Shown in pieces: positions 6,480-25,794 of a stretch of 52,187 bases of DNA; position 1 is the first letter of the stretch, and each line of letters begins with the position of its first letter. The translations under genes were made by a program, and so were the position numbers. The notes below the pieces were generated by a model. The model did no database searches. It worked only from the letters and a program-made list of their open reading frames with translations, and had not been told where the DNA came from. Location of the stretch: sequence record DRR723986_6770, one strand, 5' to 3'.

Positions 6480-6582
6480 GAAGCTAATTTAGTAAACTAA
6501 GTTTCTTGTAATTTTATAATTAAAAGTATTGGTTCTATAATCGGCTATGGCAGCCTAAAAGTTTACTTGAAAGCAAAAAATA

Positions 6583-6771
6583 CTAGCTTTTTGCTTTTTT
6601 ATATTTTCCCCAAAAATATACCGGGAAAATAAGTGCTTTAAGCTTCCAGTCGTTTTTCTCAGTCAAAGTTAAGCTGGAATCCTCATGCACAGCACGATAC
6701 ATTTTTCCTGCAAAAAGACAATGTCCAATTAGCAAGACAAAAACGATGGCGTAAATAATCAGTTCGGTCAT
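6583..6771 (-). CDS. Small hypothetical membrane protein (62 aa)
   Basis: ATG start, N-terminal hydrophobic helix, and co-orientation with its neighbours. Confidence 0.7.
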   Translation of the reverse strand: MTELIIYAIVFVLLIGHCLFAGKMYRAVHEDSSLTLTEKNDWKLKALIFPVYFWGKYKKAKS

Positions 6772-6944
6772 TTTGGGGAAAAGAGTGGTAAAGTTTTAAA
6801 GTGGTAAAGTGTGTCAAATACTAAGGTTAATTAAGACTTTTACCCTTTATTTAAGATTTTTGATTTACGATTTACGGCGGCAAAGCAGAGTTGAAGAATG
6901 GGATAATCTAAACCATACAACTCACAAATGTTACAACTTACTTT

Positions 6945-6972
6945 TTTTACTTCCAACTTCGGTCTGCTGTCT
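6945..6972 (-). repeat. Degenerate heptamer array immediately after the prmA stop codon
   Basis: The sense strand reads TGA-AGACAGC-AGACCGA-AGTTGGA-AGTAAAA. Confidence 0.45.
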
Positions 6973-7803
6973 TCAAGCGTTCTTCTGTAAAATCAACGCT
7001 GCCCAGTTGTCCTTGCTTTGCTGAGAAATCAACTCCAAGCCAAGTGGCTTTGCGCAAGCATCCAAATCATCAATATCCTCTGTGTAAAACCCACTGAGTA
7101 ACAAAAACCCTTGTGGCTTCAACAAACCAGCATAAATCCCCATTTCATCAAGTAATACATTCTTATTGATGTTAGCTAGAACTATGTCGAATTCACCCTG
7201 CGGATTTACTTCTCTGATCGTCCCCAACTCCATTCGGGTGGTTAATCCATTCAAGTCAAAATTTTCATTTCCATTATCCACACACCAATCATCGATATCA
7301 AAAGCTTCGATTTCCCTAGCTCCGAGTAAATGCGCCATTACAGCAAGAATTCCAGTTCCCGAACCCACATCCAACACACGCTTTCCTTGGTGGTCTATCT
7401 GACCTTGATGACGAAGCATCTGGAAAGTAGTCGCATGATGACCTGTCCCAAAAGACATTTTGGGATTGATTACAATCTCGTGTTTGAACTCAGGCTTGCT
7501 TGGGTGAAAAGACGCTCTCACGTAAACCAGATCGTCAACAGCAATGGGATCGTAATTCTTTTCCCATTCCTCATTCCAGTTGACCTTCGGCATCACTCCT
7601 TCTTCCAAAGTGATTTCAGCATCCACTTTATATTGGGCGATCACTTCATCGAAAGCTGCACGATCAAAATCTGACTCTAGCGTATAAGCGTCGATTCCTT
7701 CCTCAGTTTCGAGGAAGGAATCAAAGCCTATCATGGATAGTTCGGCGATAAGGATTTCCCGGAATTGCTCCAGGCACTTGATTTTAAACTCCAGGTAATC
7801 CAT
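6973..7803 (-). CDS. prmA: 50S ribosomal protein L11 methyltransferase
   Basis: Motifs INPKMSFGTGHHATT, VLDVGSGTGIL and LANI. Confidence 0.95.
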   Translation of the reverse strand: MDYLEFKIKCLEQFREILIAELSMIGFDSFLETEEGIDAYTLESDFDRAAFDEVIAQYKVDAEITLEEGVMPKVNWNEEWEKNYDPIAVDDLVYVRASFHPSKPEFKHEIVINPKMSFGTGHHATTFQMLRHQGQIDHQGKRVLDVGSGTGILAVMAHLLGAREIEAFDIDDWCVDNGNENFDLNGLTTRMELGTIREVNPQGEFDIVLANINKNVLLDEMGIYAGLLKPQGFLLLSGFYTEDIDDLDACAKPLGLELISQQSKDNWAALILQKNA

Positions 7804-7809
7804 TTTTTC

Positions 7810-8571
7810 TTAGAATGATTTGATAATATCTACGAAGTCACGGGACTTCAACGATGCTCCACCGATCAATCCTCCATCTACATCAGGCTTTGCGAAAAGC
7901 TCCTGAGCATTCTTTGGATTACAGCTACCTCCATAAAGGATGGAAGTGTTATCAGCAATGTCTTTTCCGTATTTAGAAGCGATGTGTCTTCTCAAGGCCG
8001 CATGCATGTCCTGAGCTTCCTCAGAGCTTGCTGTTTTGCCCGTACCAATTGCCCAGATCGGCTCATAAGCAATTACGATCTTGGAGAAATCCTCAGGACT
8101 CAAGTCAAAAAGACCTTCTGTCAATTGGAATTTCACATTTGGCTCATGGGTACCTGCAGTTCTGATTTCAAGAGATTCCCCACAGCAAAAGATTGGAGTC
8201 AAGCCATTGGCAAGCGCAAGCTTTACCTTGGTAGCAAGCATCTCATTGCTTTCTTTGAAATATTCACGGCGCTCGCTATGACCAATGATCACATATTGTG
8301 CTCCAAAAGAAGCTAGGATCTTTGCAGAAACTTCACCTGTGAATGCTCCAGCTTCCTTATCAGAACAGTTCTGAGCTCCGATGAAAACACCTTTTGCTTG
8401 TCCTATAAGTTTTTTGACTGGGAAAATATGTGGGAAAGGTGGGTTAAGCACAGCGATAGCTTCGCCAGAATGCTCGTCCTTCATCATGTTTAATATTTCG
8501 GAAGTAAGGGTCTGACCTTCTTCGAAGGTCATGTTCATTTTCCAGTTGCCGGCTACGATTTTCTTACGCAT
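7810..8571 (-). CDS. tpiA: Triosephosphate isomerase
   Basis: Motifs [24 protein letters not shown] and GGASL. Confidence 0.98.
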
Positions 8572-15740: not shown

Positions 15741-16442
15741 ATGAAAAGATTCTTACTTGGCTTACTCGTATTTCAACTCTTCACTTTTGCAGCTAATGCC
15801 CAGATCGAAAAGGGTAGTGTTTTTTTGGGAGGAAGAGTAAACTACAACCATAACAAAACCGATTCGGAATCCAGAATTTATGATCCTTCGGTAGTTACTA
15901 CAAACGAAATTCAAAGCAATCAATTCACTTTCAACCCTCAGATAGGATATACTTTAAATAATAGTTTAGTCATTGGCACCTACCTTCAAATCTATTCTTA
16001 TAAAGCAACTTCAGATAGAATTCAAATATCAGACGGAGCCACAACAGGCTTTGAATATTTGGATAAAAATAATTCCTTTATCGTGGGTTTTTTTGTCCGA
16101 AAATATGTTCCATTTAGTGAAAGGTTTTCAGCATTTGGCGAATTGGATGCTGGTATCGGCAAGATTAACGAGAAGCATTTCGTAGGGAATTCATCCGGAA
16201 CTCAGGAAGAGACAGAGCAAAAATTCAATAAATTCGAAAGTAATCTTAACATCGGCCTTTCCTATTTTCCGAAAAAATGGATGGCAATCGAGCTATCATC
16301 AAACGTGTTAAGTTTTATCCATGAAGGAGAGAATAGGGAAATAGAAAACCAAAAATCGGAAGTAAATTCAAATGGCTTTCACATTGGTCTCAACGCATCA
16401 GCCATCAATCTCGGCGTCTCTTTTTTCCTAAACAACAAATAA
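15741..16442 (+). CDS. Outer-membrane beta-barrel protein
   Basis: Signal peptide ending ANA-Q, alternating hydrophobic strands, and a terminal LGVSFFL strand. Confidence 0.8.
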   Translation: MKRFLLGLLVFQLFTFAANAQIEKGSVFLGGRVNYNHNKTDSESRIYDPSVVTTNEIQSNQFTFNPQIGYTLNNSLVIGTYLQIYSYKATSDRIQISDGATTGFEYLDKNNSFIVGFFVRKYVPFSERFSAFGELDAGIGKINEKHFVGNSSGTQEETEQKFNKFESNLNIGLSYFPKKWMAIELSSNVLSFIHEGENREIENQKSEVNSNGFHIGLNASAINLGVSFFLNNK

Positions 16443-16458
16443 GCCTTCTTTAAAACTG

Positions 16459-16492
16459 AAAAAGGTCAACTCAGCGATGAGTTGACCTTTTT
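16459..16492. terminator. Bidirectional intrinsic terminator
   Basis: AAAAAGGTCAACTCA-gcga-TGAGTTGACCTTTTT. Confidence 0.88.
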
Positions 16493-16514
16493 GGTTGGTT
16501 GGTGGTTATGTGTG

Positions 16515-16952
16515 TTATCTAAAGGTATATTTTACTCCTACTCCTCCTCTTAGATAAGTATCGCTGTGGTTTGCTATAACCGGAGCTGCTTCTATCAAAA
16601 AGCCTAGGTTTTTGGTATTAAACGGTTTGATCAATACGCCTACAGGGATAGCAACATAGATATCATTGTGATCGTCATGATGCTTGTGGTGATGGTCTCC
16701 CAGCAATCCAAGGCCTGCCCCTACATAGGCATTGACTTCGCTTTTTCGAACGAAGTTATAGCCGCCCATCAATTCCAGTCCGATATCATGGCCGATTCCA
16801 AGTCTAGCTTCTCCGAAGAATTCTTTATCTGGATCGGTACCAACTGTAATAAATGTATCTGAAGTCTGAAAATTAAGACCTACTGAAACTTGGGCTTGTG
16901 AAATCGAGATAAATGCAAAAACTGTGAATACTAATAAGAATACTTTTTTCAT
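16515..16952 (-). CDS. Small outer-membrane beta-barrel protein with a His-rich loop
   Basis: Signal peptide ending SQA-Q, C-terminal GVKYTF, and internal DHHHKHHDDHND. Confidence 0.78.
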   Translation of the reverse strand: MKKVFLLVFTVFAFISISQAQVSVGLNFQTSDTFITVGTDPDKEFFGEARLGIGHDIGLELMGGYNFVRKSEVNAYVGAGLGLLGDHHHKHHDDHNDIYVAIPVGVLIKPFNTKNLGFLIEAAPVIANHSDTYLRGGVGVKYTFR

Positions 16953-17007
16953 GGTGTATTAGATTATTTCTATTCCCCTACCCCATAAAAGAGCCAAACT
17001 TAATTCC

Positions 17008-18054
17008 TTACCAATTCCCTTCTTCCTTTGTAATCGTACGTTTATCTTTTGAGCTTAAAAAAGAGGCCTCAATTATCTTCAAAACGCTGATAGCTTGAGG
17101 TATTTTGATAAATAAATCAGAACCTTTCAGAATTGCATCAGCTACATTTTGGTAAAGAATTCTATAATCTCCCGGAATTGTTTCGTAAAGTTTAATTTCC
17201 TCACTGAGGAATAATTTCCCCCACTTCTCCTCAGTTTCCACACCCCAGTCAGGCCCTTCCGGTTTTTTACCTAGCTTAAATTCTGCCTCTTGCACGTCCA
17301 AACCGAACTTTTGATAGGAACCATTTTTCCCTAAAAGTAAAAACTTAGGAGTCGGCGCATTCACCAAAGCTCCAGCAGTTACTCTCGCTTTGAGCGAACC
17401 ATAATCCATCGTAATATCAAAGTAATCGTCAGCAACCGCACCTTTTCTTTGCTTTCTTATATCAGCCTGAATCCAGTTGGGCAAACCAAAAAGCAATACA
17501 ACTTGATCGATCAAATGGGCTCCAAGATCATAGGTGATGCCATTTCCAGGAACTTCTTTCTCTCTCCAATTTTCCGAAACATCAGGGCGAAAACGATCAA
17601 AATGTGATTCCAAATAGACTAAATCCCCAAGATCTCCTTCTCGAACTAACTTCTGCAAGGTCATGAAATCTCCATCGTAGCGACGGTTATGAAAGACTGA
17701 GCAAATCAACCCTTTTTCGTCTGCCTTCTTATTTAAAGCCTCGGCTTCGTGGGAATAGATTGTCACGGGTTTATCCACCACAACATGCTTTCCAGCATCC
17801 AAACATTGCATGGCCATTGGAAAATGAAATTCATTCGGAGTAGTAATCACAATTAAATCCGCGACGTCAGCATCAAGCAATTCCTCAAGACTTCTATACG
17901 TAGTCACACCTGAATACAATTCCTCACATCGATTGGTGCGTCGCTCAACTGATGCTACGAGATCAAGGTCTGGGCACACATCAATAAGTGGTGCATGCAT
18001 TTTTTCAGCTACAGAGCCGAAGCCAACGATAGCTGTCCTTATAGAATTACTCAT
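17008..18054 (-). CDS. Gfo/Idh/MocA-family oxidoreductase
   Basis: Motifs IVGFG, GKHVVVDKP, FHNRRYD and DLGAHLID. Confidence 0.9.
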   Translation of the reverse strand: MSNSIRTAIVGFGSVAEKMHAPLIDVCPDLDLVASVERRTNRCEELYSGVTTYRSLEELLDADVADLIVITTPNEFHFPMAMQCLDAGKHVVVDKPVTIYSHEAEALNKKADEKGLICSVFHNRRYDGDFMTLQKLVREGDLGDLVYLESHFDRFRPDVSENWREKEVPGNGITYDLGAHLIDQVVLLFGLPNWIQADIRKQRKGAVADDYFDITMDYGSLKARVTAGALVNAPTPKFLLLGKNGSYQKFGLDVQEAEFKLGKKPEGPDWGVETEEKWGKLFLSEEIKLYETIPGDYRILYQNVADAILKGSDLFIKIPQAISVLKIIEASFLSSKDKRTITKEEGNW

Positions 18055-18056
18055 AA

Positions 18057-18683
18057 TTAAATATTCATTTCATGTGCCTTATTCACCAGCTCGATTCTCG
18101 AGCTAACCTGCAGCTTCAAGTGGATGTTTTTGCGATGGGTCTCTATAGTTTGCTTGCTCAAATTGAGCATTTGAGCAATTTCTTTATTTTGAATACCATC
18201 TTTGATCAGATGAATTATTTCTGTTTCGCGACGCGAAAGTTTATAGCGGGAGCGGAATGCATCAAAATATGCACCTTGTAGAGCCTGTTTTTTTACTCGG
18301 TCAAAATTCAATACATGGCGACCTTCATAAACTTCACGAATAGTAAAAATTAACTCATCCGGATCAGCATCTTTTAGTATAAAGGCATCAGCCCTCTGAT
18401 CGATGCATTTTTTGTAAATCTTCTCCTCATCGTACATCGAAAGGACAATCACCTTTAGATGGGATAAGTTTTCTTTGCAATATTCCAAAACTCCAAAGCC
18501 ATCCATGATTGGCATATTCAGATCGGTAAGAACCACATCTACCTCATTTTCTTGCAGATAATTGCATAGCTCTTTGCCATTGGGGAATATATCGGTAACT
18601 AAAAGATCATCCTCTTCTTCGAGAATTCCTTCAATTCCTTTTGCAAATAATTTGTGGTCATCAGCCAGGGCAATCCTGATCAT
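18057..18683 (-). CDS. NarL/LuxR-family response regulator
   Basis: Receiver domain (ADDH, LTDLNMP, LSM, FILK) followed by a LuxR HTH (LSRRETEI..NKEIA..TIETHRKNI). Confidence 0.93.
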   Translation of the reverse strand: MIRIALADDHKLFAKGIEGILEEEDDLLVTDIFPNGKELCNYLQENEVDVVLTDLNMPIMDGFGVLEYCKENLSHLKVIVLSMYDEEKIYKKCIDQRADAFILKDADPDELIFTIREVYEGRHVLNFDRVKKQALQGAYFDAFRSRYKLSRRETEIIHLIKDGIQNKEIAQMLNLSKQTIETHRKNIHLKLQVSSRIELVNKAHEMNI

Positions 18684-18738
18684 TGGTAGGGGAGATTAGT
18701 ACTTCAGGGTAATTCAACTTCAAATTATATCCTAAAAT

Positions 18739-19494
18739 CTAATTTGGCAAGGTTAAAGTGATTTCTGTTCCTTTCCCAATAACAGAATTCAGTTCAAATT
18801 GACCCCCAATAGTCTCCATTCTTTTCCTGAGATTGAACATTCCACTGCCCTGCGAGTCTTGGGAAGTATCAAAGCCTTTTCCATCGTCTTTGATTAAGAT
18901 ATGCTTACTATTCCCATTTTCATAGATGCTAACGTGAATTTTATCAGGAGATGCATGTTTGATCGCATTATTGAGAGATTCTTGGATTACTCGAATTAAC
19001 ACAAGTTTGTGGTCTTTGGGTAAATCCAATAGTTCCAAATCAGCCTCTAGAGACGCTTCACAGAAGCCTGTATTTTGAATCCTCTCCAATTGCTGGGCTA
19101 TGAATTCATTGATACTAAGCGTTTCTACCCAATCAAGATTCAGTTGTTTGGATAATCCACGCACTTCTTGAATAGCCTGACTGAGGATTTCTTTCCCTTC
19201 TTCCCGTTTGTTTTCTTTGAGAGAACCAAAGTTCAGCTTAGCAAGAGAAAGTAATTGACCTATGTTGTCATGCAGCTCTCTACCTATATATGTTAAAGTT
19301 TCCTGTTGGATTTCATTTTCAATATTTAGTAAGGTTTTTTCATGCTCAGATTTGATTTGATCCATTTTTTGACGGTTTTGTACCTGCCGCTGTCTGTGGA
19401 TAAAAACCATGGAAATAACGAAAGTGGACATGATCCCACCCAGAAATAAGGTGGCAAAAATGATAACGTAAATCTGGTCTTCAGTTGGATTCAT
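18739..19494 (-). CDS. NarX/DesK-class (HisKA_3-type) histidine kinase with one N-terminal TM helix and no sensor domain
   Basis: H-box RELHDNIGQ, N-box ESLNNAIKH, DDGKGF and GSGM. The ATG at 19494 overlaps the 3' end of the upstream membrane-protein gene. Confidence 0.9.
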   Translation of the reverse strand: MNPTEDQIYVIIFATLFLGGIMSTFVISMVFIHRQRQVQNRQKMDQIKSEHEKTLLNIENEIQQETLTYIGRELHDNIGQLLSLAKLNFGSLKENKREEGKEILSQAIQEVRGLSKQLNLDWVETLSINEFIAQQLERIQNTGFCEASLEADLELLDLPKDHKLVLIRVIQESLNNAIKHASPDKIHVSIYENGNSKHILIKDDGKGFDTSQDSQGSGMFNLRKRMETIGGQFELNSVIGKGTEITLTLPN

Positions 19495-20239
19495 AAGATG
19501 GTTCTTTTTCAAATTGTATTGGCAAAAAAGGAGAGGCAATAGTCAATGTCAAAACTCCCAGATTCATTAAGGTCATAAAATTGCCAATATCCTGGAGGAA
19601 TTTACCTAACACAGGGTTGACAAAATATAGGTATAACAAAGTAACGGAGGAGATATATGACAAAGAAAATGTGAACATAATAAATGTCATCAGCCAAAAG
19701 GAGATCAGTTTCAATGGATTGCTTTCCAAATATTGCTCTTGGGTGATAATTCCAATGAAATAAAGGCCGCATCCAATTAAAATCATATTTGCACCTAAAG
19801 CAAATATGATGGGTTGATGTAGATACAGCAATTCCATGCCTGTAAGCTGAAGAAATAAGATAACGGCTAAGAAGGCATACATCATCCAGGTAATATATCT
19901 CTTTTGGGAGGGAGCCAACCACATTCTGATCAGTCCTAAAAAAAGCAATGCACCAATCTGCCTTTCTGAAACATTATAAAGCCATAGATTAAACCGTGGA
20001 TATTCAATGTTTCCTAAAAAGGCATTAACTGATTTTTTAAACTCAAAGTTATAGTTTGTATAAGCACCTAGGTTCTCATAAGAAACTGTAAACGCCAAAA
20101 TAATAAATGGAAACAAAAACTTAATGTTGGTTTTCTGACTCTTGGGTAGCTTGATAAAAAAAATCAATCCCACCATCACTAATAGGTTTGAGGAGATGGT
20201 GAACCAGTGGTTAAATGCCTCCAACAATCTACTGTCCAT
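19481..20239 (-). CDS. Hypothetical polytopic (about 7 TM) membrane protein, paralog B
   Basis: About seven hydrophobic segments; aligns end to end with 20318-21097. Confidence 0.85.
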   Translation of the reverse strand: MDSRLLEAFNHWFTISSNLLVMVGLIFFIKLPKSQKTNIKFLFPFIILAFTVSYENLGAYTNYNFEFKKSVNAFLGNIEYPRFNLWLYNVSERQIGALLFLGLIRMWLAPSQKRYITWMMYAFLAVILFLQLTGMELLYLHQPIIFALGANMILIGCGLYFIGIITQEQYLESNPLKLISFWLMTFIMFTFSLSYISSVTLLYLYFVNPVLGKFLQDIGNFMTLMNLGVLTLTIASPFLPIQFEKEPSYESN

Positions 20240-20317
20240 AAGTCAATGCTGGATTAAATGGTCTTAAATTTTTGCCAAATACCACTTAAAACAACTCAAG
20301 TTTCAACCCTAAAATAA

Positions 20318-21097
20318 TCATGAAATTAAATCGGATTTTCGACTAGGCACATAGAATGGTTCTCTGTCAAATACCTTATTAAGAAATGGTGAAATAATTA
20401 TCAACAAGAGCATTGCTCTAACAGAAATCCCTAAAACTCTATCAATATTTGCCATGTTAATTGCTAACTCTCTGCTAATGCCAAAAATATAGATCCGAGC
20501 CACGGAGTTTATATATATCAAGGAATAAGTGAATAAGAGTATGGTAGTTTGCCAAAAAGAGATTAATCTAAGCGGATGGGAATCTAAATAGTGATCATTG
20601 GTGATCATTCCTATAAAATATAATCCACAGCTAACCAAAACTATATTAGCAGCCAAAGCTGCAATAAAAGGCTGATCTAAATACAATGGTTCGACGCCTG
20701 TCAGTTGAAAAACTACAGCTGTGATCAAAAATATAGAAATCATCCAATTGATGTATTTTTTCTTGGAAGGTTCAATCCATATTTTAATTAAAAACAGGAA
20801 CAGAACTGTAGTGATTTGTTTATTGGAAATGTTGTATAACCAAATATTATACATGGGATTCTCGGTATTTCCTAAGAATTCATTTACAGCTTTTTTAAAC
20901 TCGAAATTGGAATTGACATATCCTCCTAGGGCTTCATAAATAACAGAAAAGCCCAAAATCACTAAAGGAAGCCAATAGAGACTATTGGCCTTTTTCTCCT
21001 TCGGCAGTTTCAAGAAGAAATAGATTCCGATTAAAAGTAGGACATCCACCGTAATTGTATAGTAATTTACATAAGCATGCCAAAATTTACTTTCCAT
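20318..21097 (-). CDS. Hypothetical polytopic (about 7 TM) membrane protein, paralog A
   Basis: Shares KLPK, YExLGxY, NFEFKKxVNxFLGN, NxWLYN, QLTGxExLYLxQP, GLYFIG, PLxLISFW and SPFL with paralog B. Confidence 0.85.
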   Translation of the reverse strand: MESKFWHAYVNYYTITVDVLLLIGIYFFLKLPKEKKANSLYWLPLVILGFSVIYEALGGYVNSNFEFKKAVNEFLGNTENPMYNIWLYNISNKQITTVLFLFLIKIWIEPSKKKYINWMISIFLITAVVFQLTGVEPLYLDQPFIAALAANIVLVSCGLYFIGMITNDHYLDSHPLRLISFWQTTILLFTYSLIYINSVARIYIFGISRELAINMANIDRVLGISVRAMLLLIIISPFLNKVFDREPFYVPSRKSDLIS

Positions 21098-21099
21098 AC

Positions 21100-21495
21100 T
21101 TAGGAATCAGTTGGTTCTGGATCACAATATGGAGGGCATAATACACCATTGTTTTGATAATCCTCTTCGGGATTTTCCAAGGTAATTTGATCTTCGTTTA
21201 GGTTAGCCGCTCTCATTACTACAGTTAAAGCACCCGTTAATTGTTCCACTTCGTTTGGGTGATATTTAGCTGCTACTTCTTCTGTATATTCAGTGATATA
21301 AAACTGAATACCTCCTTTTTTAGGATCTTTATCAGCTTTTGCCAATAAACCCTCTAGAGTTTCTCTGTTGAAAAAAATCCAATTTGTTTGGTCGATTTTA
21401 TCCTTGCCTTTTTTGTCCTTGGCTGGCTTTCCTTTCTTCACTTCCTTACTATACTTTAACTTCATACTTTCGAAGTCTTCTTTTGAAATTTTCAT
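21100..21495 (-). CDS. Small hypothetical protein with C-terminal CPPYC motif
   Basis: 131 aa with no signal peptide; ends NNGVLCPPYCDPEPTDS, 2 nt before paralog A. Confidence 0.85.
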   Translation of the reverse strand: MKISKEDFESMKLKYSKEVKKGKPAKDKKGKDKIDQTNWIFFNRETLEGLLAKADKDPKKGGIQFYITEYTEEVAAKYHPNEVEQLTGALTVVMRAANLNEDQITLENPEEDYQNNGVLCPPYCDPEPTDS

Positions 21496-21584
21496 GTAAA
21501 ATTACGTTTGTAAAAATTTTAGATAATTAAAAGCTGTAGAAATAATTCCCCAAAAGATAAGGATTTTATCTCCTATAAGACAAT

Positions 21585-21616
21585 AAAAAAGGAGCGAGTA
21601 CACTACCCGCTCCTTT
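21585..21616 (-). terminator. secDF terminator
   Basis: Hairpin AAAGGAGCG...CGCTCCTTT with an A6 run (U-tail on the minus strand). Confidence 0.75.
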
Positions 21617-21641
21617 AAAAAAACGCTGCTATTCTGGAGAA

Positions 21642-24614
21642 TTAAGCAAGCTTTTTAGCTTCTTTCGAAGCAGTTTCATTTTCGATTTCTCTTTTCATCA
21701 AATCCACTACAATTGGCGTAGCGATGTAGATAGAAGAATAAGTACCTACCAATACACCAATAAATAATGCAAATGAGAATCCTCTCAACACTTCACCACC
21801 AAATATCAACAAGACAATCACTACGATCAACGTAGTAAATGAAGTAATCAAGGTACGGCCTAAGGTTTGATTGATTGCGTCATTGAAGACTTTTACCAAT
21901 TTATGTGTTCCTCTGCTTTCGATATTCTCACGAATACGGTCAAATACAATCACGGTATCGTTAATAGAATAACCAATCACTGTCAATACCGCTGCAATAA
22001 ACACCTGATCAATCTCAAATGTAGCTCCAAAAGCACTCGCGATAGCAAAGGCTGCAATCACAAATAAGGTATCGTGAATCAAGGCAATGATAGACGCCAA
22101 GGAGAATTGCCACTTACGGAATCTTAGCAAGATGTATAGGAATATCGCAATCAATGCTACAACCATAGCTTCAACGGAAGATGCTTTAATATCATCCGCT
22201 ACTGTAGCACCTACTTTGGAAGAACCTGTGATGGCAAATTGACCTGAAGCTAAAGCTTCAGCATCTTCAGTAAATGATAGTCCAGTAACTGAGGCAATTC
22301 CTTCTTTCACTTTACTTTCAACTTCTAGGTTAGATTCAGCATCATCTTCGTTTACCAAATAGGAAGTTGTCACTTTCAAGACGTTGTTTGAACCGTAAGT
22401 TTTCACTTCCACAGATCCGTCAAACTCCCTATCCAAACCTGATTTTAAATCTGAAGCTGCCATTGGCTCATCAAATGCAACGATATAAGAACGTCCGCCT
22501 GTGAAATCAACCCCGAATTTCAAGCCATTCACAGCAGCTATTCCCAATCCAATCACAATGATGGAAGAGGAAATAAGGTAAGCAACTTTTCTTTTACCCA
22601 AGAAATCAAGATTCAATGAGCTCAATGAATTTTTTGCAAATGGAGTCGCAAAACTGATGGAGCTCTTATCGCCTTTCTTACTCATCCAAGATACAATCAC
22701 TCGAGTGATAAATACAGCAGAGAAGAAGGAGGAAGCAATACCAATCATCAATACGATTGCAAAACCTTTTACTGGGCCTTGGCCTAATGCATAAAGAATA
22801 GCACCTGTAAGGAAAGTCGTTACGTTTGAATCGAGAATCGCTGAGAAAGCTTTGTTGTAACCTGCATTGATCGCAGCGATCAAACCAACGCCATTTCGAA
22901 GCTCCTCTTTGATACGTTCAAAAATCAATACGTTCGCATCAATGGACATACCTATCGTCAAAACGATACCTGCTATACCTGGCAAGGTCAAGGCAGTTCC
23001 TAACTGAGCTAGGATACCTAGGATAAAGAAGATGTTGAACACCAATGCTGCGATAGCTACCAAGCCACCTTTTGAATAATAAGCCATCATGAATAACACC
23101 ACAATACTTAATCCTGCCACCATGGAGATCAAACCTTGGTTCAATGCTTCTTTACCTAAGGTTGGACCGATGATGCTTTCTTCTACGATTTGCGTAGGAG
23201 CTGGAAGAGAACCTGATTTTAGGATGTTTGCCAAATCCTGAGCCTCTTGTAGGGTGAAGTTGCCGGAAATTTCAGATTGTCCTGAAGGAATTTCGCCATT
23301 TACTACCGGAGCGGTGTAAACATAGTCATCTAATACCACGGCAATTCGTCTTCCGATATTCTCAGAAGTTAATTTTCTCCATTTTCTAGCACCATCTGCA
23401 TTCATCTGCATGGAAACTGCAGGTCTGGAAGTCTGATCCAAAGCCTGACGAGCATCAGTCACTACATCACCTTCAAGCGGTGCTTCGTCCGTTCCTCTTT
23501 CAGCTTTAATTGCAAAAAGCTCCAACGTTTCAGTACCATCTTCTGCCTCGAAAGGCTTAACTGCCCATAGGAGCTTAATATCTCTTGGTAATAGGTTTTT
23601 GTAATCCTCATTTTTGATGATACGGTTGATTGCCATCGTATCACGAAGCTCATATGCTAGTCCGTAATTAGGCTTAAGTAAGCTGAAGAGAGGAGAAACA
23701 CTGTTATCACCAGATCTAGACGGATCGATCTCTGCCAATTGCTTTTCTAAGGCATTTCTTAGAGAATCCTCACCCGTCAGATTTTCTGTAGATACAGTGT
23801 CTGCAGCTGCAGGTTCTGCTGATTGATTGGCAGCTACCCAGGCACTATTCACAGCTTCTAGCGCTGCACCGATTTCATTTGTTTCAGCTACTTCCCAAAA
23901 CTGTAGCTTTGCTACGCCTTGAAGCAAGTTTCTTACTCTTTCTTGATTGTCAACACCTGGTAATTCGATCTGGATACGACCAGATCCTTGAATTCTCTGA
24001 ATGTTTGGTTGAGAAGTCCCGAATCTATCAATACGAGTTCTAAGGATGTTGAATGAACGCTCGATTGCGTTTTCAATCTCGTTATCGATGATCTCCAAAA
24101 TTTCAGAATCAGAAGACTCCAAAGAAATTCGGCCTCTATTGGCTGCAGTAGCGAAGATTCCGCTCAATTTTTGACCTGGGCTATTCTTCTGAAAAGCTGC
24201 ATAGAATAGATCCACATATTTTGCAGTCGAAGTCTTAGCTTCTTCACGAGCTTCTTCTACAGATTTGTTGAAAGCCGCATCCTTAGGATTACCAGCAAGT
24301 CCTTTTACGATTTCCACCGGGGAAACTGCCAAAGTAACGTGCATACCGCCTTGAAGGTCAAGACCTAATCCTAGTTCGGTTTCCTTTACTTCTTGGAAAG
24401 TATAATCAGCTCCTAAGAAGCTGTAAACCGGAGCTCTCCAGATAGAATCAAGATAGCTTTGTCTTTTAGAAAAATCCACGTTGCCAGATGCGTCAGTCGC
24501 ATATTCCTGAGCCCCTTTTTGGATATTGTTTGATACAAATGTGAATGACAGATAGTACAAGCATAATGCTGTAACAATCACTGTCAAAAACACAATGACA
24601 CCTTTGTTTTGCAT
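21642..24614 (-). CDS. secDF: Protein translocase subunit SecDF
   Basis: Motifs LGLDLQGG, IGPTLG, IDANVLIFERI, GVDFTGG and GYSINDTVIVFDRIRE. Confidence 0.97.
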   Translation of the reverse strand: MQNKGVIVFLTVIVTALCLYYLSFTFVSNNIQKGAQEYATDASGNVDFSKRQSYLDSIWRAPVYSFLGADYTFQEVKETELGLGLDLQGGMHVTLAVSPVEIVKGLAGNPKDAAFNKSVEEAREEAKTSTAKYVDLFYAAFQKNSPGQKLSGIFATAANRGRISLESSDSEILEIIDNEIENAIERSFNILRTRIDRFGTSQPNIQRIQGSGRIQIELPGVDNQERVRNLLQGVAKLQFWEVAETNEIGAALEAVNSAWVAANQSAEPAAADTVSTENLTGEDSLRNALEKQLAEIDPSRSGDNSVSPLFSLLKPNYGLAYELRDTMAINRIIKNEDYKNLLPRDIKLLWAVKPFEAEDGTETLELFAIKAERGTDEAPLEGDVVTDARQALDQTSRPAVSMQMNADGARKWRKLTSENIGRRIAVVLDDYVYTAPVVNGEIPSGQSEISGNFTLQEAQDLANILKSGSLPAPTQIVEESIIGPTLGKEALNQGLISMVAGLSIVVLFMMAYYSKGGLVAIAALVFNIFFILGILAQLGTALTLPGIAGIVLTIGMSIDANVLIFERIKEELRNGVGLIAAINAGYNKAFSAILDSNVTTFLTGAILYALGQGPVKGFAIVLMIGIASSFFSAVFITRVIVSWMSKKGDKSSISFATPFAKNSLSSLNLDFLGKRKVAYLISSSIIVIGLGIAAVNGLKFGVDFTGGRSYIVAFDEPMAASDLKSGLDREFDGSVEVKTYGSNNVLKVTTSYLVNEDDAESNLEVESKVKEGIASVTGLSFTEDAEALASGQFAITGSSKVGATVADDIKASSVEAMVVALIAIFLYILLRFRKWQFSLASIIALIHDTLFVIAAFAIASAFGATFEIDQVFIAAVLTVIGYSINDTVIVFDRIRENIESRGTHKLVKVFNDAINQTLGRTLITSFTTLIVVIVLLIFGGEVLRGFSFALFIGVLVGTYSSIYIATPIVVDLMKREIENETASKEAKKLA

Positions 24615-24707
24615 GAGAAATTGAAATTATTAATTGATTGTAAATACAGATTTATAGCTTAACCTATAAAAAGGTAAGCGTTTGGATGATTCGGGATGTA
24701 CTTGGAA

Positions 24708-25064
24708 TCAGGGTCCTTTGGTGGATATTATTCGCTCAAAAAGTATTTCTACGAGCTGGTTTGCTTGAAAAACTGAGGTGGACTCGGTGATGAATGTACC
24801 TCCATCAAATCTTACGATATCCTGAATTAGGTAAAGTAAGCTGTGAGATACATGAACTACAAATGGGACCACGGCATCCACCGCCACATTTAAAAAAGTT
24901 TGATCCTGATCATTTGAGGAAGCTTTGTCTTGTTTTTCAACTTTGACTACTGCACCATTTTCAGGTACATATTCTACGCTTGAAATAAATAAACAGAACA
25001 GCAAAGCCAGCATCACAGTAATGCGCTGTTGAAATAAGTTGCTATTTCGTTTTGTTGCTTTCAT
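24708..25064 (-). CDS. secDF upstream ORF (118 aa), candidate translation-arrest/monitoring peptide
   Basis: N-terminal basic region plus TM segment (ITVMLALLFCLFISSV) and C-terminal LFERIISTKGP-stop. It ends 93 nt before secDF. The ATG at 25064 follows TATATTTG. The CDS is well supported; the function is inferred. Confidence 0.7.
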   Translation of the reverse strand: MKATKRNSNLFQQRITVMLALLFCLFISSVEYVPENGAVVKVEKQDKASSNDQDQTFLNVAVDAVVPFVVHVSHSLLYLIQDIVRFDGGTFITESTSVFQANQLVEILFERIISTKGP

Positions 25065-25176
25065 GCGGCGCAAATATAGCCAATTATTTAAATTGACCAT
25101 TTCTCATCTTAGATTTTCTGATTATGGATTACGAATTCAGAACAAAATGATGTAAATCAGGCAATTAACAGTATAA

Positions 25177-25794
25177 TTAAGATGTCCTAACACGCAAGTA
25201 GGTGCGGATAACCTCGAGTGCTTTATCAAAATTATGATTATTAGGGACGATCAAATCGGCATCGTTCATAAATGGCTTGATGTATTTCTCGTAAGTAGGC
25301 ATCACGTGCTGCTCATAGCGATACAGCACATCATCCAAATCGTATCCGCGTTCCACTTTATCACGAATAATTCTTCGCTTCAGCTTAATGTGATCTTTGG
25401 CATCTATAAAAACCTTAAGGTCTAGAAGACTAGCCAATTCTGGGTAATACAACACAAAAATACCTTCCACAACTACCACAGGTGCTGAGGAAAAAGTTAA
25501 CATTTTTGGCTTTTTAGCTGCGTTATTGAAAGTGTATTCCTCTCTGTAAACCGTTTCTCCAGCCTGAATTTTACGGATATCAGCTGCGTACTCTTCAAAA
25601 TCTATGCTTTCCGGCCGATCAAAATTATGAACTCCATGATCGTCTATCGGCTGCATCTCTCTCGGCTTGTAATAATTATCCTGAGAAATCAGACAAACCT
25701 CACCAGCCTCGAATGAACTAAGCAATCGCTCTAAAAAAAGTGTTTTCCCTGAAGCTGATCCTCCTGTGATACCGACGATGAATGGTTTTTGCAT
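25177..25794 (-). CDS. udk: Uridine kinase
   Basis: Motifs GITGGSASGKT, SQDNYY, NFDRP, VEGI and RD..ERG. Confidence 0.9.
   Translation of the reverse strand: MQKPFIVGITGGSASGKTLFLERLLSSFEAGEVCLISQDNYYKPREMQPIDDHGVHNFDRPESIDFEEYAADIRKIQAGETVYREEYTFNNAAKKPKMLTFSSAPVVVVEGIFVLYYPELASLLDLKVFIDAKDHIKLKRRIIRDKVERGYDLDDVLYRYEQHVMPTYEKYIKPFMNDADLIVPNNHNFDKALEVIRTYLRVRTS

Follow-up and report, generated by a model that had tools for sequence, protein, structure and literature searches.

A putative four-component signalling module of Bacteroidia built around a histidine kinase without a sensor domain

Histidine kinases that carry no sensor domain raise the question of where their signal comes from. We address this question for a locus in a 52,187-nucleotide stretch of DNA from sequence record DRR723986_6770 (hereafter the window, meaning the whole stretch), in which a HisKA_3-type histidine kinase and a NarL/FixJ-type response regulator are encoded behind a small protein with a C-terminal CPxxC tail and two paralogous proteins with seven transmembrane helices (7TM). 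The two accessory families lie outside the curated libraries and would provide the answer. Across many genera, these two uncharacterised genes are inherited, duplicated and ordered together with a complete kinase-regulator pair. The locus thus holds a two-component system that two new accessory families extend to a fixed four-gene layout, and we propose that the encoded proteins act as a four-component signalling module around an otherwise ordinary HisKA_3/NarL pair, a model to which, taken as a whole, we assign a probability of roughly 0.55. The genes concerned, with open reading frame abbreviated as ORF and amino acids as aa, are the following.

21100-21495, minus strand: CPxxC-tail (small) protein, ORF of 131 aa; first gene, proposed co-sensor
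20318-21097, minus strand: 7TM-a, ORF of 259 aa; proposed membrane sensor/transducer
19481-20239, minus strand: 7TM-b, ORF of 252 aa; paralog of 7TM-a, its 3' end overlapping the kinase start by 14 nucleotides (nt)
18739-19494, minus strand: HisKA_3 histidine kinase with a single transmembrane (TM) helix, 251 aa from the ATG at 19494
18057-18683, minus strand: NarL/FixJ-type response regulator, 208 aa, with Response_reg and GerE domains

A conserved gene row around a sensor-less kinase

The kinase ORF opens at a TTG at 19539, and the ATG at 19494 gives a protein of 251 aa. Of the 17 kinase ORFs called in 14 Algoriphagus loci, 13 have this length and the other four measure 249-253 aa. Pfam places a HisKA_3 domain (PF07730) at residues 70-116 (30 bits against a cut-off of 24, E = 7.8e-7) and a HATPase_c domain (PF02518) at residues 166-250 (48.5 bits against a cut-off of 26.4, E = 1.4e-12), and it finds no sensor or other domain in the protein. 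Ahead of the HisKA_3 domain there is a single hydrophobic helix, at about residues 8-32, and the phosphoacceptor His75 lies within ELHDNIGQ, both as read from the sequence. With its conserved His and its HATPase_c domain the protein belongs to the HisKA_3 class of histidine kinases. The nearest solved relatives of its cytoplasmic part are VraS and DesK, and its best NCBIfam match is UhpB with 88 bits, far under the cut-off of 408; LiaS is also among the matches. Intramembrane-sensing kinases have two TM helices, a very short outer loop and no other sensor domain. We rejected this class for the kinase because it has one helix only, although the absence of a sensor domain would agree with it.

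The regulator combines a receiver domain (Response_reg, PF00072; 83.5 bits, E = 1.5e-23), whose phospho-acceptor Asp54 can be read within VVLTDLNMP, with a GerE domain (PF00196; 60.8 bits, E = 9.6e-17), and the receiver Asp and the GerE helix-turn-helix together identify it as a NarL/FixJ response regulator. It resembles MctR, NarL and UvrY in NCBIfam but scores under their cut-offs. Since no NCBIfam equivalog reaches its cut-off for either the kinase or the regulator, the latter is not NarL, UhpA, MctR or any other named regulator.

The window genes are all on the minus strand, as five co-oriented ORFs downstream of the terminator of secDF, and their coordinates give intergenic gaps of 2 nt and 78 nt, an overlap of 14 nt (19481-19494) and a gap of 55 nt. 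A preliminary description of this DNA, made from the sequence alone, had reported the same row of five genes with the same gaps, and the coordinates agree with it exactly. It had also described a kinase with one TM helix and no sensing domain whose start overlaps a polytopic gene, and both Pfam and the coordinates bear this out.

Close homologues carry source names that assign the window to Algoriphagus. Within Algoriphagus, the 14 loci have SecDF, then one to three small-7TM (sometimes small-7TM-kinase) copies, and then kinase, regulator and an oxidoreductase. Blocks of small protein, 7TM protein and kinase have been duplicated as units in two loci (L016 and L023), a second kinase is also present in L025, and L014 has one small gene with three 7TM genes. 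A single 7TM query matched 13 of 25 genomes of the genus, and the misses were mostly small, incomplete assemblies. When the small-protein profile was run against the order, it matched 8 of 301 genomes, all from one family, and these eight comprise the six sampled genomes of the genus (6/6) and two other genera.

In a sample of the phylum, weak matches to the small-protein profile turned out to have the same gene architecture, and hhalign comparison of the distant with the near proteins indicated homology both for the 7TM protein (96.9% probability, E = 1.4e-10) and for the small protein (94.6% probability, E = 7e-8). A wider small-protein profile alone matched 21 of the 401 genomes in the phylum sample. 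Outside Cyclobacteriaceae, 17 of 18 loci encode, on one strand and in this order, a small protein, a polytopic protein of ~215 aa, a 1-TM HisKA_3 kinase and a NarL regulator. With an alignment of the subfamily found in Flavobacterium, 124 relatives were retrieved and 80 loci were kept, all from Flavobacterium or unnamed Flavobacteriaceae apart from one record titled [Flexibacter], and with F. johnsoniae CI04 among them. The full order is present in 79 of these 80 loci, with median gaps of +7, -28 and -11 nt, and the values listed for the 7TM-kinase overlap in the 79 run from -28 to -121 nt on first-start ORF calls.

The 7TM protein, which measures ~215-260 aa in these groups, is found still more widely. 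A wide 7TM profile matched 114 of 401 genomes in a sample of the class, from 63 of 199 genera and often with several matches per genome (the tally takes in one genome flagged as unpublished, G863). Twenty loci were chosen from these matches across family labels, before their neighbours were known, and a 1-TM HisKA_3 kinase was found next to the 7TM gene in all 20. The kinase is followed by a regulator in 18 of them, while in one of the remaining two the regulator is on the other strand and in the other none is in view. An upstream ORF on the same strand with a CP tail is present in 19 of the 20 (16 CPxxC, 1 CPxxxC and 2 CPP), and the upstream ORF is recognised by the small-protein profile in eight loci, including one in which it is fused to the 7TM protein. 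An extra kinase-like ORF of 219 aa, with no membrane helix, was seen between the 1-TM kinase and the regulator in locus L166 (2140-2799).

Because the arrangement recurs in many genera, it is far beyond chance. The window itself has this gene order, on one strand and with a 7TM gene that abuts or overlaps the kinase gene, and we regard it as very probable that its genes constitute one functional signalling module. This agrees with the preliminary description, which had treated the genes as one signalling system with a sensor-less kinase whose start overlaps a polytopic gene; the row is kept as a unit across genera, and the kinase is paired there with a 7TM gene overlapping or abutting its start. 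Co-occurrence in the same order elsewhere, to be sought by profile searches and gene neighbourhoods, was found in Cyclobacteriaceae, in Flavobacterium and in the wider Bacteroidia, and the CPPxC-tailed genes that the preliminary description had mentioned beside kinases in other Bacteroidota were encountered there as upstream ORFs with such tails.

The accessory proteins as candidate input of the kinase

7TM-a and 7TM-b are 49% identical (E = 1e-88), and the AlphaFold2 model of 7TM-a consists of seven long helices with a predicted local distance difference test score (pLDDT) of 92. In the proteins for which seven helices are called, the distribution of Lys and Arg gives a topology with the N-terminus outside and the C-terminus inside. 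Widely kept features of the family are a Glu in helix 2, a YN pair opening helix 3 and an FW pair opening helix 6, and the window proteins show them as YEALG or YENLG, LYN and SFW. Residue F181 reaches at least 90% conservation in the wide 7TM alignment. The best-conserved motif, NPLRL.SFWQ, of which the wide family retains FW, is located where TM6 begins on the cytoplasmic side. As a sequence family the 7TM protein is narrow, with 26 clusters among 1.84 billion representatives, each of at most 265 aa, whose named members are Algoriphagus or Cyclobacteriaceae.

At E <= 1, no Pfam or NCBIfam family matches either window protein. A homologue carries the name HisKA_7TM in one source, although profile tests led us to reject this identity: PF16927 (HisKA_7TM) has no match at E <= 1 in the two window proteins or in six further polytopic partners (five distant ones and one paralog), and in the nearest genome it matches only a different gene, even at E <= 10. 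Fold comparison of the 7TM model returned generic seven-helix bundles, namely rhodopsins and G-protein-coupled receptors, all at E >= 0.08, and the top matches, themselves non-significant, were microbial rhodopsins (E 0.08-0.35, TM-score 0.41-0.51). We rejected a microbial rhodopsin as well, given these non-significant fold matches and a helix-7 Lys that is not conserved in a 22-sequence alignment. In public annotation, homologues (P0005, P0009, P0010, P0130, P0131 and P0138) carry the titles 'histidine kinase' for the 7TM protein and 'molecular chaperone DnaK' for the small protein; as no domain search supports either title, both look like propagated misannotations.

An overlap at the start of a gene is the usual signature of translational coupling. 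Because the kinase lacks an input domain, the genes are kept together and the 7TM gene overlaps the kinase start, we infer that the 7TM protein is the membrane partner of the kinase and the point at which the signal enters; that it serves as the input partner is, in our judgement, probable. The accessory proteins might also be outputs of the pair, i.e., co-transcribed effectors, with the kinase itself sensing the membrane through its single helix. The kinase indeed has its closest relatives in the DesK and VraS families, a lone helix could in principle register the state of the membrane, minimal DesK constructs reportedly sense the membrane directly, and autoregulated operons often carry their own effectors. 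However, overlap of the 7TM gene with the start of the kinase gene is found in nearly all loci, and among the 20 loci chosen from the 7TM profile alone there is none in which the 7TM gene stands away from such a kinase. This overlap and this adjacency (20/20) fit a stoichiometric complex better than a regulated effector, and we consider the effector explanation improbable.

The association of the 7TM protein with the kinase does not extend to a single polypeptide. No fused 7TM-kinase turned up in the 26 representative clusters, in the 150 matches listed for the class sample or in a search for longer proteins, the last being weak evidence. The 'split receptor' of the preliminary description, understood as a broken fused protein, is not borne out, as the pair stays two genes. 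In the model that we favour, the 7TM protein, with its N-terminus outside and its C-terminus inside, would pack against the single helix of the kinase within the membrane and would set the balance between kinase and phosphatase activity, as BceB, LiaF or UhpC do, or as sensory rhodopsin II does for its transducer. The phosphorylated regulator would then alter the transcription of its targets.

The 7TM proteins are also the fastest-changing part of the module. In locus L018, they (6503-8543) are 52-64% identical to those of the window (19481-21097), compared with 97% for SecDF, 89% for the kinase, 94% for the regulator and 92% for one small protein, which points to either replacement by a paralog or diversifying change at the sensor. 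The presence of two 7TM paralogs per kinase in the window suggests two input specificities that share one output.

The small protein of the window ends in ...NNGVLCPPYCDPEPTDS, in which the tail pattern G/P-x-x-C-P-x-x-C stands a few residues before the stop, and G117, C120, P121 and C124 are invariant in an alignment of 16 Algoriphagus sequences. It matches no Pfam or NCBIfam family at threshold, the PDB holds no relative of it in structure or sequence, and its Atlas neighbours come from Bacteroidota only and are without names. AlphaFold2 models it as a small alpha/beta domain (pLDDT 90.1). In this model the strand just ahead of CPxxC is predicted to join the sheet, the tail would pack onto the fold, and a variable acidic stretch before the strand adjoining CPxxC appears as a loop. 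The first gene of the module is very divergent (104-346 aa), and the tail is its most persistent sequence feature. Among 46 diverse homologues, 28 have a CPxxC tail, 12 have G..PP without Cys and six have another ending; in the Flavobacterium subfamily the tail reads NYG[NS]IGRPP in 79 of 80 loci and the cysteines are absent in all 80, while in a minimal subfamily of ~105 aa the C, P and C are again invariant. One homologue (L043, 7379-7735) ends in ...PLNHGVLNP with neither cysteine, right at the start of the 7TM gene, and in that lineage the tail seems to have been truncated or replaced.

Where the small protein would act depends on the side of the membrane on which it resides. A signal peptide is absent from the window protein, from all 16 of 16 Algoriphagus homologues and from 79 of 80 in Flavobacterium; among the 46 diverse homologues, 12 have a lipobox-like signal, six more have a hydrophobic N-terminus and 28 have neither. 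The first gene is of the lipoprotein type in L042, L071, L073, L075, L078, L081, L174, L188 and L192, and of the signal-less type in the window, L074 and L118, so that presence and absence occur even inside one genus-level group (L073 versus L074). The topology of the 7TM protein is the same for the partners of signal-bearing and signal-less homologues. A flip of topology between the two groups was therefore rejected, the Lys/Arg bias placing the N-terminus outside in both wherever seven helices are called.

Three observations connect the small protein more closely with the 7TM protein. Firstly, an ORF of 516 aa in locus L181 (2965-4515) comprises a signal-like N-terminus, two small-protein-like domains, with tails CQPVC and CPPHC, and a 7TM domain. 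No second fusion of this kind occurs among the 150 listed 7TM matches, and the ORF's sole match in the named collection is L193, the same sequence, titled as a Sediminibacterium metagenome-assembled genome (MAG). In its relatives the two parts are encoded by separate genes, which in one case share a reading frame interrupted by a TGA, and in these relatives the first gene encodes a lipoprotein of ~310 aa ending in CPPxC. Secondly, the identities of the small proteins correlate with those of the adjacent 7TM proteins (r = 0.76), a value reached in none of 2000 permutations. Thirdly, the small and 7TM genes have been duplicated together. A predicted complex of the small protein with 7TM-a scored 0.00, in a run without controls in which the supplied alignments were unused, and has no bearing on the model.

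On these grounds we propose that the CPxxC-tail protein is a co-sensor acting on the 7TM protein. The lipoprotein-signal homologues and the fusion would place the small domain at the outer, N-terminal face of the 7TM protein, where the conserved tail (hydrophobic-D-hydrophobic..PCPxxC) would be the likeliest contact or switch, possibly through thiol/disulfide exchange. As for a direct action of the small protein on the 7TM protein, we see an even balance of chances; the split into signal-bearing and signal-less forms, set against a constant 7TM topology, leaves our confidence in the co-sensor step only moderate. The stimulus might be an envelope or redox cue, though this is conjecture.

The same N-termini could be taken to mean that the CPxxC-tail protein is a cytoplasmic modulator, such as an anti-kinase, a scaffold or an intracellular ligand or redox sensor, that works on the cytoplasmic loops of the 7TM protein or on the DHp and CA domains of the kinase. 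The absence of a signal peptide from the window protein, from the Algoriphagus and nearly all Flavobacterium homologues and from 28 of the 46 diverse ones argues for this, as does the position of the best-conserved 7TM motif on the cytoplasmic side. It is harder to reconcile with the 12 of 46 diverse homologues that bear lipobox-like signals, with the fusion, in which the domain comes before the outside N-terminal end of the 7TM part and behind a signal-like N-terminus, and with a 7TM topology that does not flip between the groups. We therefore find a cytoplasmic modulator unlikely.

The preliminary description had further suggested a self-contained peptide or quorum-type circuit. In such a circuit the first gene would encode a precursor that the 7TM protein processes or exports, and a CPxxC peptide from the precursor's C-terminus would be perceived outside the cell. 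The gene order recalls those of agrBDCA and comQXPA, only the short tail is preserved among first genes that are otherwise very divergent, and the 7TM protein changes faster than its flanks (52-64% versus 89-97% in L018), as in pheromone-receptor pairs. The small protein, at 104-346 aa, is however a confidently folded domain whose pre-tail strand is part of the sheet, and the module contains no protease, ABC exporter or modifying enzyme, so that this reading is unsupported. No leader, cleavage or double-glycine motif was noted by eye, a motif scan not having been made, and Pfam gives no match to AgrB or AgrD. As the kinase brings no receptor domain, processing and reception would both fall to the 7TM protein. 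Moreover, the tail is near-invariant within subfamilies (79 of 80 in Flavobacterium), unlike strain-specific pheromones, and its cysteines are replaced by G..PP in that subfamily. Altogether, we consider a peptide circuit highly improbable.

Returning to the four-component model with the small protein as co-sensor, several observations weigh against it. In locus L081 (5752-7897), two 7TM genes stand behind a small gene of the lipoprotein type, with no kinase or regulator within 5 kb downstream, and the locus may be an orphan input pair or have its partner encoded elsewhere. Eleven of the upstream ORFs in the 20 chosen loci, with a PCPxxC or near-variant tail, are known by position and tail only, and L166 is the sole locus of the 20 that has no upstream CP-tail ORF. 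By ordinary rules, and as judged from their N-termini, the signal-less small proteins would be cytoplasmic, and the existence of both signal-bearing and signal-less forms makes one binding face hard to maintain for all homologues. Signal-less proteins could arrive at the outer face by another route or act in the cytoplasm; alternatively, the mechanism may differ between the two forms. A thiol switch is not general, since Cys is absent from 12 of the 46 diverse homologues and from all 80 in Flavobacterium. The fusion, known from one MAG whose relatives keep two genes, may be a sequencing or assembly error, and linkage alone can explain the co-variation of small and 7TM proteins.

Borders and neighbours of the module

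The module is flanked in the window by the following features.

21642-24614, minus strand: secDF, with SecD/SecF Pfam domains
21588-21616, minus strand: intrinsic terminator of secDF, formed by a 13-bp stem (6 GC pairs) and a T-run after it; borders the module on its upstream side
21551-21560, minus strand: candidate promoter box TTATCTTTTG, a block between the terminator and the first gene
17008-18054, minus strand: Gfo/Idh/MocA oxidoreductase (Pfam matches), on the same strand as the regulator

The hairpin of the secDF terminator is kept with compensatory changes in an alignment of 11 Algoriphagus loci, and the paired changes in its two arms read GGAGCGGG/CTCGCTCC, GGAGTGGG/CTCACTCC and GGAACGGG/CCCGTTCC (alignment A9). 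Downstream of it, the TTATCTTTTG block stands out in the alignment of the 11 Algoriphagus intergenic regions through its invariant and >=90% columns. It resembles TAnnTTTG, which we take to be the consensus of the Bacteroidetes-type -7 box, and this likeness suggests that the module may have a promoter of its own.

The oxidoreductase gene is the sixth in the row, begins 2 nt past the stop of the regulator and is probably co-transcribed with it; the preliminary description makes no mention of this gene. In Algoriphagus it follows the regulator on the same strand in all 12 of the 12 loci that include the regulator, at a spacing of -4 to +12 nt and, in one locus, of 97 nt. Two other genera of Cyclobacteriaceae have the small-7TM-kinase-regulator row without the oxidoreductase, which is therefore a genus-level neighbour outside the core module. 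It may be a genus-specific regulated target, and in the proposed mechanism the targets in Algoriphagus would probably include the operon itself together with this adjoining gene. Further along on the minus strand, 16515-16952 encodes a protein of 145 aa with a signal peptide and a His-rich run (HHHKHHDDHND), whose sequence looks to be of a small beta-barrel type and for which no Pfam family was found. Rfam has no family within 16000-25500 of the window, and PADLOC returned no defence-system family for the accessory proteins.

Comparison with known systems and significance

By analogy, the logic of the module would be that of known three- and four-component systems, namely LiaFSR/VraTSR, BceRS-AB, UhpABC and RcsF-IgaA-Rcs. 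No characterised system was matched in the profile searches or in the full-text literature, as the preliminary description had anticipated; full-text searches, with subscription journals and supplements outside their scope, gave no description of the module. PMC10197871 deals with a LytTR-type kinase that is unrelated to the module.

LiaFSR/VraTSR, which responds to envelope stress in Firmicutes, likewise pairs a HisKA_3 kinase that lacks an extracytoplasmic sensor with a NarL-type regulator, and its operon also encodes a separate membrane protein that controls the kinase. It differs in that LiaS has two TM helices whereas the kinase described here has one, and in that the accessory component here is a seven-helix bundle with a further CPxxC-tail protein, in a Bacteroidota host. 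We examined the 7TM and small proteins as accessories of the LiaF/VraT type and rejected this, as neither matches a curated LiaF-like model. In BceRS-BceAB and UhpABC, a polytopic membrane protein beside the kinase supplies the signal, as proposed here, and for UhpABC the likeness extends to the best NCBIfam match of the kinase, UhpB, and to outputs of the UhpA/NarL type. In contrast to these systems, the 7TM protein shows neither ABC nor MFS features, Pfam does not match it, and an ATPase gene is absent.

The closest physical analogy may be that of sensory rhodopsin II and HtrII, in which a seven-helix receptor makes lateral contact with a separate membrane-anchored transducer. The 7TM proteins have neither a conserved helix-7 Lys nor sequence similarity to this receptor, and their partner is a histidine kinase rather than a chemotaxis transducer. 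The Rcs input also combines a Cys-bearing lipoprotein (RcsF), a polytopic protein (IgaA), a kinase and the NarL/FixJ-type RcsB, a scheme that the lipoprotein-type small homologues would fit. Unlike there, the window small protein is without a signal peptide, the accessory proteins have no Pfam family at threshold, and the kinase is a simple single-helix HisKA_3 protein and not a hybrid relay.

The module resembles agrBDCA and comQXPA as a four-gene unit in which a kinase and a regulator are joined by a membrane-protein gene and by a small gene in first or second place, and ComP and ComA are of the HisKA_3/NarL type. The small protein here is a folded domain rather than a short propeptide, and the kinase is without the polytopic receptor domain of AgrC or ComP. 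Signalling of the agr type was thus considered and rejected, there being no Pfam match to AgrB, AgrD or ComQ and the small protein being a folded domain of 131 aa.

A more specific proposal is that the module represents a class of input that is widespread in Bacteroidia and undescribed, in which a stand-alone seven-helix receptor reads the C-terminal PCPxxC tail of its dedicated partner and signals sideways in the membrane to a single-pass kinase, the tail being a tethered agonist or a thiol-disulfide switch as it could be either. We put this forward tentatively, as rather unlikely in this precise form. Bolder still, the signal-less partners would be cytoplasmic cargo that meets the outer face of the receptor only when neighbouring cells lyse, which would make the module an alarm for damage to kin.

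The four-gene module is common in environmental Bacteroidia. F. johnsoniae carries it at L118 4001-6486 and is open to routine genetics, which makes the idea directly testable. Working the module out would define a new input architecture for two-component signalling and could settle the role of the tail, be it a redox switch, a docking peptide or something else. It would also give a function to hundreds of 'hypothetical' genes of soil, freshwater and marine Bacteroidia, and, if the tail-reading class of receptor is real, it would reveal a division of labour between receptor, co-receptor and kinase that has no characterised bacterial counterpart.

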